Shown here one piece after another: positions 28,443-33,468 of a DNA stretch of 64,000 nucleotides. Source of the DNA: Escherichia coli. Its GTDB lineage: Bacteria; Pseudomonadota; Gammaproteobacteria; Enterobacterales; Enterobacteriaceae. The stretch is from the NCBI RefSeq assembly GCF_046105845.1, contig NZ_CP151004.1; one strand, written 5' to 3'. The notes under the pieces were generated by a model that made no database searches, was not told the DNA's origin, and saw only the letters and a program-made list of their open reading frames with translations. The first letter of the stretch is position 1, and every line of letters starts with the position of its first letter. The position numbers were made by a program, and so were the translations under genes.

Positions 28443-28616
28443 CTAGATTAAATCAATCTTGATATCATAGCTTTCAAGACCAGTCATTTTTTCCCGTGCA
28501 GTAAACTGGATACTGGTAACTTCTTTCCCGGTCTTTTTCTTAAGCTCAATGATTTTTTTTGTTATATATTCAGAAATATCTGCTTCTGTTTTTGTTTTTA
28601 ACTCTTCAATGTTCAT
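28443..28616 (-). CDS. GnsA/GnsB-family protein
   Basis: MNIEELKTKTEADISEYITKKIIELKKKTGKEVTSIQFTAREKMTGLESYDIKIDLI resembles E. coli GnsB. Confidence 0.7.
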   Translation of the reverse strand: MNIEELKTKTEADISEYITKKIIELKKKTGKEVTSIQFTAREKMTGLESYDIKIDLI

Positions 28617-28788
28617 CATTTCCTCTTTTAGTCTGTTATGACTTTCCTGGTACACAGTAGTGTCAATTATATGGAGCAAACGTATAAAAGATAAGATGAA
28701 ACATCGCAATAATCAACATACGACGGTCTAAATTTCACACAAACAGATAAAGATGATTATCATTTATTATCAATGCATTAGAATCAAA

Positions 28789-29019
28789 TCAATTCAAGAG
28801 TCTCATTGCTGCTTCCAGAATTTCTTCTGAAGTTACATGTCGATCCGCTGCTACATAAATGACTTTATGATCTCCGGTCAGAGATGGAAACCCTGCAGCC
28901 ATTACAGTGAGGTGTGTTGTTTCGCCATTTGGATATTCACGCATGATGGTGTTAACTCCGGTCATCACTGGCACTACCATTGCTGGTTCAGAGTTAAAAA
29001 AAACTATTATTTTTTTCAT
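28789..29019 (-). CDS. Hypothetical small protein
   Basis: ORF MKKIIVFFNSEPAMVVPVMTGVNT...; start uncertain. Confidence 0.4.
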   Translation of the reverse strand: MKKIIVFFNSEPAMVVPVMTGVNTIMREYPNGETTHLTVMAAGFPSLTGDHKVIYVAADRHVTSEEILEAAMRLLN

Positions 29020-29290
29020 AATGTTACCGTAATATGTGAGTATCCATCGACTAGACACTAAGCAAAAAAGCTCCCGAAGGAGCCTTCATTTTCACTTTCT
29101 TAAATCTAACGACAGACGGCTAACATTTAAGTATTGTGAAATATTATCAAATGTAATCATCATTGATTTACAAAAGATACATTTTGCCCCGAAAGGATTC
29201 CTGTCAGAAACATCAAAAGATGATGTTCTATACTGAGAACCATGGCAACACGGGCATCTAAAGTGAATATGGTTTGTAATATTTTCTACC

Positions 29291-29506
29291 TCAAAGTGCC
29301 ACTACATGAACAGCCGCGGGGCCTTTAGGTCCGTTCTCAATACCAAATTCGACTTCCTGATTCTCAGTTAACGTTTTGAAATCGTTGCTCTGAATAACTG
29401 AGAAATGGACAAACACATCTTTGCTACCATCTTTCGGCGTGATGAAACCAAAACCTTTTTCAGGGTTAAACCATTTCACTAAACCAGTCATTTTGTTAGA
29501 CATCAT
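29291..29506 (-). CDS. Cold-shock protein (CspA family)
   Basis: [23 protein letters not shown]...VFVHFS, RNP motifs. Confidence 0.85.
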
Positions 29507-29866
29507 TATTACCTTTTGAAGAAGTTAGCCCTTGGGCAGAATGGTCCGAAAAAAAATATCAGAGAGAAAAACCAACAAGGAGATCTCAAGAGGTACAAAT
29601 AATAAAATTATAACAATGACTGCTTCAGATAATTTTGTAACAAACCAGAACACCATTAACGCATGATTAACCAACCATAGCAAGGATTACTTTTGTAAAG
29701 AAAAACACACGAATGAAACAATAGCTTTATTTATTAATAAAACGTGTCATTCTGTCTAATGACCTTTTATCTTACCCTTAAGATTTCAAGGATTTTGACT
29801 CATGGAAGAGTCCTTTTTATTTAAATTTCACATTCAGCGCTAAAAATAATCCGATTTAATATTAAT

Positions 29867-30364
29867 CTACATCTGATATTTTTTATCTCTTAAAGATTCA
29901 TAAATCCGTTGACAAGTCACTCCTGCGATGTAGCGTTTGTCAGCAATTTCAGCATAAAGCTGAGCTTCTGCTGCAATATCTCCGAGCATGTTGGTGAGCA
30001 TTCCTTCGGCGGCTTTGGTTGTTTTGCCTCTGACGGCAGCGGCAAGATTTGCGGTATGCTGCGCTGCGTCAAGGCGTATGGCATATTTTGTTGCTTCGGC
30101 ACGCAGCTGGTTAACACTATCAGACAGATCAGCAGCCCTGGCAGAAATTTCAGCGGCTTTCTGTTGTGCATCTTTAACAGCCTCATCACGGGATATAGTT
30201 CGCCCCTGTTCAATTATTCGAGCAGCAAATTGGACATTTACCTCTTGAGATAATTCGGCAGCATCACGCTCCGCCCATTTTTTTTGCCATCCTCTGTCGC
30301 TCCAGACATTACCTACGACAAATCCTACCAACACGAGCAAAATCACCGTGAATATCTGATTCAA
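29867..30364 (-). CDS. Inner-membrane spanin (Rz-like)
   Basis: 165 aa with N-terminal transmembrane helix and coiled-coil region; follows the lysozyme gene. Confidence 0.75.
29917..30171 (-). CDS. Outer-membrane spanin lipoprotein (Rz1-like), embedded in Rz in another frame
   Basis: Signal peptide and lipobox LTSC, Pro-rich ([14 protein letters not shown]). Confidence 0.55.
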
Positions 30365-30894
30365 TGTTCTATCCCCCAGCAGGTTAATGCACTCTCCTGG
30401 TCACGACGAATAACCTGACCGTAACAATTATTTGAACGAATGCGGCAATCACGTCCACCGTCCTTTATCCACCAGCGAATCGCCTCGCATGCGCCTTTAC
30501 GATCACCGGCATTAAGCCGCTTATAAAACGTCGACGGAAAACACTTACCAGGGCCAATGTTATAGGGACAGAATGACGCGATACCGGCTTTCTGTGGCTC
30601 GGTCAGTGGAACTTTTATATTGCGCTCCACCCATGCCAGCGCCTTATCCCGCTCAATGGCGTTAACCTGGGCGCATTTTTCCTTCGACAGTTTCATTCCC
30701 GGAATAACAGGTTTACCGTCCACCATCGTTGCTCCCCGACAGATGGTCCATATGCCGGAGCCATCGCGGTATGCAGTGGTGTGATTCCCCTCTTTTTCAT
30801 CCAGAAACTGATCGAGAATGTCAGGGGCAGGAGCACTGGCGGCAATCAGTGCCAGAACAGCAGCCGACAGGCTGTATCTGATTTTTACGTTCAT
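30361..30894 (-). CDS. Phage lysozyme (RrrD/RrrQ-like)
   Basis: 177 aa; ...[25 protein letters not shown]... Confidence 0.85.
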
Positions 30895-31215
30895 GGATAT
30901 TTATCAGGATTTATCGGCTTCAAATCCCCGGATATGTTAAATCTTACCTCACCAGTGATGGGCACTGGCGGGAGGAGGATGTCAATCTGATAAACACAGA
31001 GGTGACTATGGATTACACAAATCTACCAAAACAAACTTTTGCTGATTTAATCGCACTCAGGCAAGCAGTCGTAGCTCTAATCAACTTGTTGCCGGAGAAG
31101 GAAAAGGAATTAGTTAAAGCGCTTCTTAACAGAACTGCCGCCGATTTTTCATCATATCCACTGACAGATGACCTTGCGGACCTTCCTGAATTAATTGCAG
31201 CGTCCGCCATTAAGC

Positions 31216-31767: not shown

Positions 31768-31771
31768 TGGA

Positions 31772-31987
31772 TTACTCTCTTCTCGCAACCTTACGCCTGT
31801 CTTCTTTAATCTTGAAATAAAGGTTTGTCAGATACGTCAGCAGGCCAAAAACCAGACTACCCAGCACACCGATTGCAGCCCACTGTGACGGAGTTACTTT
31901 ATCGAGTAACTGCAATGCCCAGAAACCAGCATTACCAGCCGATGTGCCATAGGCGATACCTGTTGTTAACTTATCCATTGATTTCAT
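31772..31987 (-). CDS. Holin (EssD/EssQ-like)
   Basis: [66 protein letters not shown]. Confidence 0.85.
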
Positions 31988-32205
31988 ATCCTCACCCCGA
32001 TGTACACAGATGGTGCAATATGTTTGAAAAGATCGGAGTCTATGGGTTAGTTTTTATAGCAAACGTTGTTCTCAACGGCGCTAAAAAACAGACACATTAA
32101 AAATGTGGGTAATTATTTTAAAAGAAAATCATATATTAAATAATAATACGAGATATGTTTTCATATTTAGTGTACTGTATACGGCCATTTATACAGGAAA
32201 AGCCT

Positions 32206-32376
32206 ATGTCAGAACGTAAAGACTCAAAATCACGCCGTAATTATCTCGTTAAATGTTCCTGCCCAAACTGCACCCAAGAGTCAGAACACAGTTTTTCAAG
32301 AGTACAAAAAGGTGCCCTTTTGATCTGCCCTCATTGCAACAAAGTATTCCAGACAAATCTTAAAGCTGTAGCTTGA
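32206..32376 (+). CDS. Small zinc-ribbon protein (hypothetical)
   Basis: ATG at 32206 after an AGGAAAAG RBS; CSCPNCTQ...CPHCNK, two CxxC pairs. Confidence 0.5.
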   Translation: MSERKDSKSRRNYLVKCSCPNCTQESEHSFSRVQKGALLICPHCNKVFQTNLKAVA

Positions 32377-32739
32377 TTGATTTTATTCGTAACAAGTATT
32401 TTTTATATTTTAATAACATATTTAAAGCAGATAATAAAAAACCCGCCTGAGCGGGTTTAATATTGTGGTACTTTTTGTGGGAGTCATCCACTTACGCACT
32501 TTGTTTTGCTATGCCAGCAGTTAGCTTCTGCTGTAAAACTATTCATGCAGCAAACCTGCACTTCACCACAATGGTTAGCATACTTTTCCTGATTAAGTTA
32601 TTGCCAAATATGCTGGCCATTGTTTCATGTATTGGACCTCCTTACTATTTATTAAAGAGATCCAATATTCACCACTCTGTCTGTATCTCCACTCAGGCAT
32701 CAGCCTTCTTCGTTATCGTATACAGACAAACTATGAATT

Positions 32740-32955
32740 TTAATCAGTAATTATGACATTTGCTGCTGCAGGACCTTTAGCACCACTCTCTACAGAGAAG
32801 GTAACCTTTTGACCTTCAAATAAGGTTCGAAAATTATCATTCTGAATCGCAGAAAAATGCACAAACACATCTTTACTACCATCAACAGGAGAAATAAAGC
32901 CAAAACCTTTATCAGCGTTAAACCATTTTACTAAACCAGTCATTTTATTTGACAT
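32740..32955 (-). CDS. Cold-shock protein (CspA/B/G family)
   Basis: [23 protein letters not shown]...VFVHFSAI. Confidence 0.85.
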
Positions 32956-33255
32956 TCTACATTCCTTAACTTGAGCCTTTCGGCATAAATGGCTTGTATA
33001 ACAGAAACGACTTCGTACTTAATTGGAGAGACTCAAAGAAGGAATAAGTGAATAACACCTGAAATGAGAACTGCTTTAGTAAACTACTTCGTATATCGTC
33101 TGTTCTTCAAACCGACGCAATCATTAACGCATAGTTGAACATATGAAGCAATGTTTATTTTAGACATCCAGCCATCTTCAACCCCATCAAAAAACTATAG
33201 CTTTCTTCAGGAACGTGTGTATAGTGCGCCCAGTTATCAGTATTAAGGAATTTTT

Positions 33256-33468
33256 TTGTCCCGTAAAATGACAGGAATTGTCAAAACCTTTGACGGCAAA
33301 AGCGGCAAGGGTCTTATCACCCCATCCGATGGTCGTATCGATGTCCAGCTTCATGTTTCAGCGCTCAATCTCCGCGATGCAGAAGAAATTACCACCGGAT
33401 TACGCGTGGAATTTTGCCGGATAAATGGTCTGCGTGGCCCTTCAGCTGCCAATGTTTACCTTTCATGA
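33256..33468 (+). CDS. Cold-shock-like protein (CspF/CspH type)
   Basis: [37 protein letters not shown]...[16 protein letters not shown]. Confidence 0.8.

Follow-up and report, generated by a model that had tools for sequence, protein, structure and literature searches.

A Qin-type set of cold-shock genes and gnsB around the lysis cassette of a lambda-like Escherichia coli prophage

The window, a stretch of 64,000 nucleotides from an Escherichia coli contig (NZ_CP151004.1), contains a lambda-like (lambdoid) prophage in which three genes of the CspA cold-shock family, cspI, cspB and cspF, and a gnsB gene are arranged around the lysis genes. Judged from its sequence, this cluster is the known cspI/cspB/cspF plus gnsB set of the Qin-type prophages of E. 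coli; it is an ordinary example of that set, and no point was found that contradicts the identification. The block is very probably the late region, running from the antiterminator gene Q through the lysis genes to cos, of a Qin-type prophage carrying the standard Qin cargo, genes that are dispensable for phage growth. The arrangement is textbook Qin-type cargo and was already known. Gene identities, gene order, motifs, leader homology and distribution are directly supported in the window.

The original prediction placed three CspA-family genes and a GnsB-like gene here, and all four are present in the open reading frame (ORF) list and by Pfam, at the positions it gave or at most 3 nt away. 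The cspI gene (29291-29503, minus strand) encodes 70 amino acids (aa), 69 of them identical to K-12 CspI, with a Pfam CSD score of 105.9 bits; the end at 29506 given earlier includes a second, tandem ATG. The cspB gene (32740-32955, minus strand; 71 aa, CSD 109.3 bits) is identical to K-12 CspB at 69 of 71 residues and scores 141.6 bits with the NCBIfam CspA subfamily model (cut-off 130). Divergent from it, cspF (33256-33468, plus strand) starts with TTG and encodes 70 aa, all identical to K-12 CspF, with a CSD score of 77.8 bits and an NCBIfam CspF subfamily score of 160.4 bits (cut-off 111). The CSD (PF00313) is full-length in all three proteins, with scores above the gathering cut-off of 27. 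The gnsB gene (28443-28616, minus strand; 57 aa) matches PF08178 (GnsAB_toxin) over positions 1-54 of 54 with 114.5 bits; with 53 of 57 residues identical to K-12 GnsB, it qualifies by both family and orthology, and the closest solved structure is that of GnsA (4XO1/4XO2, E=8e-20). The alignment with the K-12 genes that had been proposed as a check was run and gave protein identities of 97-100% for the Csps and 93% for GnsB.

The genes lying between had been named as holin, YdfR, lysozyme and Rz/Rz1, and they are indeed these, all on the minus strand. The holin gene essQ (31772-31987; 71 aa) encodes a class II (S21-type) pinholin with an MKSM dual start (PF04971, 116 bits; 68 of 71 residues identical to K-12 EssQ). 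The lysozyme gene rrrQ (30361-30894; 177 aa, PF00959, 86.4 bits; 164/177 identical to K-12 RrrQ) has, as read from its translation, a signal-arrest-release (SAR)-type Ala/Leu-rich N-terminus and an E-x8-D-x5-T motif. The Rz i-spanin gene rzpQ (29867-30364; 165 aa, DUF2514, PF10721, 132.5 bits) matches K-12 RzpQ at 148 of 165 residues, and embedded in another of its frames is rzoQ (29917-30171; 80/84 identical to K-12), which encodes the Rz1 o-spanin lipoprotein with a lipobox (LTSC) visible in the translation. The Q-type antiterminator gene ydfT/quuQ lies at 33884-34636 on the minus strand (250 aa; PF03589, 176.3 bits; 233/250 identical to K-12 YdfT). All the families of a Qin-type late region (PF03589, PF04971, PF07041, PF00959, PF10721), together with the embedded Rz/Rz1 pair, are thus found on one strand. 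The divergent genes cspF and cspB occupy the space from the Q gene to the holin gene, and cspI, ynfQ, a remnant of ynfR, ynfN and gnsB follow the spanin genes before the cos end; csp genes therefore lie on either side of the lysis cassette, with gnsB nearest to cos.

Gene order and orientation are those of K-12 Qin (b1550-b1559), which reads gnsB, ynfN, ynfR, ynfQ, cspI, rzpQ/rzoQ, rrrQ, ydfR, essQ, ynfU, cspB, cspF, ynfS, ydfT, and the predicted resemblance to the Qin cspI/cspB/cspF arrangement is borne out. By blastn the two elements share two colinear blocks, window positions 28445-30904 (92.7% identical) and 31562-34967 (94.0%). The RefSeq annotation of the same DNA in strain Ec1119 lists gnsB, ynfN, ynfQ, cspI, rzpQ, rrrQ, a YdfR-family gene, essQ, ynfU, cspB, cspF and ydfT. 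The prophages differ in their integration site, which is yjjG/rsmC/leuVPQ in the window and ydfJ for K-12 Qin, and in what lies beyond gnsB, a P2-like prophage in the window and ydfO/nohA in K-12.

When 28000-34000 was compared by megablast with 5426 complete E. coli genomes, the 6-kb arrangement was covered to at least 80% in 1374, so that about a quarter of the genomes carry the cluster nearly whole, and from 28381 onwards several strains are 100% identical. Qin-type copies that are at least 90% identical are present in about two of every five complete-genome records. The E-values of the gene matches (1e-22 to 1e-33), together with the recurrence of the arrangement in these 1374 genomes, exclude a chance pattern. 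Deposited phage genomes carry the block as well. Over 28400-33700, Escherichia phage 2H10 (Glaedevirus) shares 99.6% identity with the window, including all the csp genes, gnsB, the long form of ydfR and the lysis cassette, PhiR63_1 is 99.2% identical, and HannyBb, PhiR42_1 and Tritos carry variants. It is thus not mere cryptic-prophage debris. That the cluster is a decayed, non-functional remnant is suggested by labels that the Prokaryotic Genome Annotation Pipeline (PGAP) gave to the identical Ec1119 sequence, where ydfR carries a pseudogene flag and ynfR is marked too short, by the truncation of ynfR itself and by the P2-like junction adjoining gnsB. However, all csp, gns and lysis reading frames are intact, and the whole block is nearly identical to that of 2H10. 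The ydfR-like DUF1327 gene (31216-31767, minus strand) encodes 183 aa from its ATG, compared with 103 aa for K-12 YdfR; PF07041 matches its N-terminal part with 140.7 bits, and phrog_2091 matches it over its full length (183/183, 372.8 bits). Because of this full-length match, and because the gene is an ordinary coding sequence in 2H10, the pseudogene label looks wrong and the gene looks like a full-length phage-type variant; the view of the 183-aa protein as an artefact was rejected on the same family membership. Decay of the cluster is accordingly a most improbable explanation.

The original prediction further held that the prophage adds RNA chaperone paralogues to its host, which stands for CspB and CspI, where the RNP1 and RNP2 motifs and the leader are kept, and fails for CspF, which has neither. 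Relative to E. coli CspA, to which CspB is identical at 54 of 70 residues and CspI at 48 of 70, both proteins retain K10, W11, F12, K16, F18, F20, K28, F31, H33, F34 and K60, and hence all RNP residues; the aromatic surface formed by RNP1 (KGFGFI) and RNP2 (VFVHF) is complete in these two only. Unlike cspA, their genes are prophage-borne and accessory. CspF carries the substitutions W11T, F18K, F20L, F31Q, F34V and Y42A and fails the same comparison: F12 and H33 are all that is kept of the aromatic set, leaving 3 aromatic residues compared with 8 in CspA. In the literature CspF and CspH are described as lacking the aromatic content required for RNA binding, as being of unknown function and as not having been detected as proteins. 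CspF would thus retain the cold-shock fold with its nucleic-acid-binding aromatics and its thermoregulator leader gone. Since it has neither this leader nor the RNP motifs, it should not be counted or annotated as an RNA chaperone, and the prophage appears to add two credible chaperone paralogues, not three. By analogy with their relatives, CspB and CspI would be small proteins of the oligonucleotide/oligosaccharide-binding (OB) fold that bind single-stranded RNA or DNA and melt cold-stabilised RNA structure, with a function overlapping that of the host's CspA and CspG.

The two genes also share the RNA signature of cspA. The 5' leader of cspB (32956-33116, minus strand; 161 nt) is a cspA-type thermoregulator with a cold-box-like GGUUUGAAGAACAGAC, and the Rfam model of the E. 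coli cspA mRNA thermosensor (RF01766) matches from end to end at 32677-33116(-), spanning cspB, with 156.5 bits (gathering score 78). The leader of cspI (29504-29650, minus strand; about 147 nt) is of the same type, and the match spanning cspI at 29245-29650(-) likewise covers the full model with 116.8 bits (gathering score 78). Both mRNAs thus match the entire model, although the cspI leader is the more divergent (117 versus 156 bits), whereas cspF fits neither this model nor the RNP motifs, and the Rfam search gave it no cspA thermoregulator match even at E<=1. A permissive Rfam search of 28300-34000 returned, besides the two cspA matches, only sub-threshold chance matches. A putative promoter precedes each leader in the same layout: TTGCTT, 17 nt and TGcGTTAAT at 33123-33151 (minus strand) for cspB, ending 7 nt ahead of position 1 of the Rfam model, and TTGCTA, 17 nt and TGcGTTAAT at 29655-29683 (minus strand) for cspI. 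These sites, like that of the late promoter described below, were read from the sequence by eye and are candidates; a consensus promoter scan reported 12 sites, compared with 14.3 in shuffled sequence, and neither the cspB nor the cspI site was among them.

Cold induction, chaperone activity, the lipid effect and operon structure are expected for the window from the behaviour of the K-12 genes. In K-12, CspB and CspI are cold-induced, and the cspB leader is under the control of Rho and temperature. Each of the two window genes would accordingly be read from its own promoter through a long (~150-160 nt) cspA-type leader. At 37 C, by analogy, their mRNAs would be unstable and poorly translated, with transcription cut short by Rho; on a drop in temperature they would refold, be stabilised and be translated.

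Downstream of cspI lie three small genes on the minus strand. The ynfQ gene (29092-29280; 62 aa) begins 10 nt past the cspI stop with an ATT start, which is why it is missing from the ORF list; its product has the YmcF-like CxxC...CxxC pattern, scores 113 bits with the Pfam YmcF-like family PF23641 and is identical to K-12 YnfQ at 59 of 62 residues and 68% identical to YmcF. The ynfR remnant (29051-29089) runs for 12 codons, 11 of which match the start of the 21-aa K-12 YnfR, before a stop; it is the stretch marked 'too short' in Ec1119. The ynfN gene (28789-29019) is a 76-aa long form of the 51-aa K-12 protein, with 48 of 51 residues identical over the shared part. Its full-length match to phrog_3425 (76/76) led to the rejection of the longer YnfN as an artefact or pseudogene. 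In K-12, cspI, ynfQ and ynfN are co-induced by azidothymidine (AZT) 6.5-, 5.9- and 5.8-fold, with an SspA dependence of 38- to 51-fold, and YnfR is strongly cold-induced. This shared response to AZT and SspA, with the cold induction of YnfR, suggests that cspI-ynfQ-ynfR-ynfN form one transcription unit, in which case ynfQ and ynfN of the window are probably co-transcribed with cspI.

The last of the cargo genes, gnsB, had been taken for a modulator of lipid unsaturation. Overexpression of GnsA or GnsB in K-12 is reported to raise the 16:1 and 18:1 fatty acids and to suppress fabA6(Ts) and a secG null mutation. For the window gene this effect would carry over by homology: made in quantity, GnsB may shift the membrane lipids towards unsaturated fatty acids, a change that would also be useful in the cold. 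The Pfam family, however, is named 'GnsA/GnsB toxin', PGAP calls the gene product 'addiction module toxin', and ymcE-gnsA is listed among the type II toxin-antitoxin pairs of E. coli, so that gnsB might instead be the toxin of an addiction module stabilising the prophage. The partner that such a module calls for was sought and not found beside gnsB, where no adjacent, overlapping YmcE-like antitoxin gene exists: the upstream gene is ynfN, which shows no detectable similarity to YmcE and is separated from gnsB by 172 nt, in contrast to the 11-nt overlap of ymcE with gnsA. No YmcE homologue occurs in 50,697 phage records, PADLOC gives no match for GnsB, and overexpressed gnsA or gnsB rescues growth instead of killing the cells. 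Because ynfN is unlike YmcE and lies 172 nt away, and because YmcE has no phage homologue, gnsB is not filed as a toxin here; an addiction module is improbable and the label unsupported for the window gene.

The csp genes might also serve the phage and not the host, as an RNA chaperone and antiterminator of its own that sustains late expression and lysis during lytic growth, especially in the cold. The layout of late transcription bears on this. Directly downstream of the Q gene is a putative late promoter pR' (33824-33852, minus strand; TTGCAT, 17 nt, TAAAAT), at the position expected in lambdoid phages; the consensus scan did not report it because its -35 element matches at only three of six positions. 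It is followed by a two-way intrinsic terminator (33755-33778) found by a terminator scan, with a 10-bp stem that includes 5 GC pairs and reads AAAACCCGCTGATGAGCGGGTTTTTGTGCTTT on the minus strand, which probably acts as tR' for this promoter and also terminates the cspF-ynfS transcript. A promoter-like site and then a strong terminator after Q conform, by inference, to the usual lambdoid pR'/tR' layout, and cspB occupies the slot that the stx genes hold in Shiga toxin (Stx) phages. The same scan found a GC-rich hairpin with a T-run at 32439-32458, about 280 nt downstream of cspB, which probably terminates transcription of cspB from one side and of ynfU from the other. If pR' is read correctly, polymerase modified by Q would cross ynfS and cspF in antisense before transcribing cspB, the lysis genes, cspI, ynfQ, ynfN and gnsB in sense. 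This would put cspB inside the Q-dependent late unit and cspI at its end, and a phage function gains from it, as it does from the co-direction of cspB, cspI, ynfQ, ynfN and gnsB with Q, S, R and Rz, from the promoter-like site and strong terminator upstream of cspB and from the preservation of the block at 99% or more in phages 2H10 and PhiR63_1. On the other hand, cspB and cspI have putative promoters of their own and cold-responsive leaders like that of the chromosomal cspA, the genes persist, and are induced by cold, in the defective K-12 Qin, which yields no phage, and cspB and cspF are missing from related phages, mEp460 for example. A primary benefit to the phage is therefore unlikely.

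Some points weigh against the reading of the block as a Qin-type late region with cold-shock and lipid cargo. The ynfR gene is truncated; CspF, with its aromatic residues lost and in view of the literature, does not fit the chaperone role; the lipid effect of GnsB is known only from overexpression; and a P2-like prophage begins about 50 bp past gnsB, which implies that the lambdoid prophage is interrupted or rearranged. With these reservations, the identification as Qin-type cargo means that some members of the E. coli cold-shock set, namely CspB, CspI, CspF, the YmcF-like YnfQ and GnsB, are accessory and phage-borne. Strains may thus differ in their capacity for cold adaptation with their prophage content, which bears on survival in food, water and produce. 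Beyond this, the significance is little more than correct annotation, with three automated labels corrected: CspF as a chaperone, gnsB as a toxin and YdfR as a pseudogene.

The cluster has a counterpart in the K-12 chromosome. The locus cspH-cspG-ymcF-ymcE-gnsA (b0989-b0991, b4517) runs colinear with both halves of the cluster, except that the lysis cassette is missing. The stretch of the K-12 locus from cspH through the intergenic region and the leader to nt 115 of cspG is 76% identical to cspF/cspB, all of cspG with ymcF is 74% identical to cspI plus ynfQ, and gnsA is 73% identical to gnsB, so that the three homologous segments have diverged to a similar degree (73-76% DNA identity). At the protein level CspH and CspF are 77% and YmcF and YnfQ 68% identical. 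The K-12 locus differs in having no lysis cassette between the halves, a single csp gene where the cluster has two, ymcE in place of the unrelated ynfN, and no flanking phage genes.

This colinearity points to a possible origin of the chromosomal genes. In the cluster, cspB and cspI are direct repeats on either side of the lysis cassette: the two window genes agree at 143 of 213 aligned sites (67%), and their coding sequences match those of the other K-12 gene at 74% over 191 nt (window cspB and K-12 cspI) and 82% over 115 nt (window cspI and K-12 cspB). Recombination between them would delete the holin, endolysin and spanin genes in one step and leave cspF, a hybrid csp gene and ynfQ onward to gnsB. 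Chromosomal cspG, cspH and gnsA may accordingly be the domesticated remnant of a Qin-type prophage disarmed by recombination between its own cargo genes, a tentative proposal held at somewhat less than even confidence. The cspG gene looks like the hybrid in question, its 5' part resembling cspB and its 3' part cspI: among the 60 sites that could be scored, where cspG agrees with one of the two genes and not the other, the first 12 divide into 9 for cspB and 3 for cspI and the rest into 15 and 33. The permutation p value of 0.04 lends weak support, and the homology of the flanks is the stronger evidence. Against this origin, or at least limiting it, stand the lack of relationship between ymcE and ynfN, the lack of flanking phage genes and the lack of a recent deletion form: a synthetic 1574-nt hybrid query, joining cspF and the 5' part of cspB to the stretch from the 3' part of cspI to gnsB, found no place covered to at least 80% in the 5426 complete E. 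coli genomes. The deletion model thus rests only on the old, ~75%-identical chromosomal locus. YmcE, examined as a further phage link for this locus, supplied none, as it is without a match in the 50,697 phage records. The literature searched contains no statement of a cspB x cspI deletion origin, with the classical papers on csp gene duplication lying outside that search. If true, the proposal would be a tidy example of prophage cargo turned core stress physiology.

Several features of the block were absent from the original prediction: ynfN, the ynfR remnant, ynfQ, ynfU, ynfS, an ORF at 31008-31268 and the two long cspA-type leaders, as well as a 657-bp replaced segment with the 183-aa YdfR and the lack of a YmcE-like partner for GnsB. 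The ynfU gene (32206-32376, plus strand) encodes a 56-aa zinc-ribbon protein (PF23499, 107.7 bits; NCBIfam NF038384, 79.8 bits) identical to K-12 YnfU at 55 of 56 residues. YnfQ and YnfU are predicted to be two mutually unrelated small zinc-ribbon proteins inside the cluster. The ynfS gene (33523-33612, plus strand) encodes a 29-aa protein, of which 27 residues are identical to K-12 YnfS.

The replaced segment (30905-31561), the gap between the two blastn blocks, consists of 657 bp without homology to K-12 Qin and is also present in phage 2H10 and strain Ec1119. This mosaic replacement between rrrQ and ydfR swaps the 3' half of ydfR and adds an ORF on the plus strand that K-12 Qin does not have. 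The added ORF (31008-31268; 86 aa) has no Pfam match; it matches phrog_2572 over its full length with 180 bits and is annotated in Ec1119 and in phage PhiR5_1. The long YdfR and this antisense ORF are both conserved in phages.

To the left of ~28381-28394 the window belongs to the P2-like prophage, with the crossover in a shared ATGGGT (junction 28367-28394). Its tail genes lie at 1-9000, and the part at 22000-28394, containing CI and CII genes, a KAP NTPase gene and the integrase gene (27254-28306), is 99.7-99.9% identical to an element beside rcdA in strain E2348/69. The junction with the lambdoid element occurs in none of the 5426 complete E. coli genomes, and an exact 45-mer across it has no match in 100,044 species-representative genomes. 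In other strains the terminase and head genes come after gnsB. Likewise, the linear record of 2H10 ends ~340 bp beyond the point matching the junction, with the head genes next in the circular map, and at this point the window has the end of the P2-like integrase instead. Since terminase and head genes follow gnsB elsewhere, the lambdoid element has either been interrupted by a nested P2-like prophage, through integration at a secondary site, or been rearranged.

Beside the P2-like integrase, 25650-27167 (plus strand) encodes a 505-aa P-loop NTPase of the KAP family that matches PDC-S20, a candidate defence family of PADLOC, with 260.8 bits and, more weakly, PifA and QatA. This NTPase probably serves the P2-like prophage as anti-phage cargo. 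At the right end, the lambdoid integrase (~46.1-47.3 kb) adjoins yjjG, rimI, holD, rsmC and three tRNA-Leu(CAG) genes. These tandem tRNA genes (leuQPV, 50607-50929, plus strand) form, with rsmC, holD, rimI and yjjG, the chromosomal flank of the right-hand attachment region. In the lambdoid early region, Rfam places a C4 antisense RNA (82.8 bits) and isrK (55.4 bits) side by side at 38999-39187 (minus strand), overlapping a coding sequence annotated as 'ash family protein' in Ec1119; this stretch looks like a P1/P7-type immI-like module for antirepressor control.

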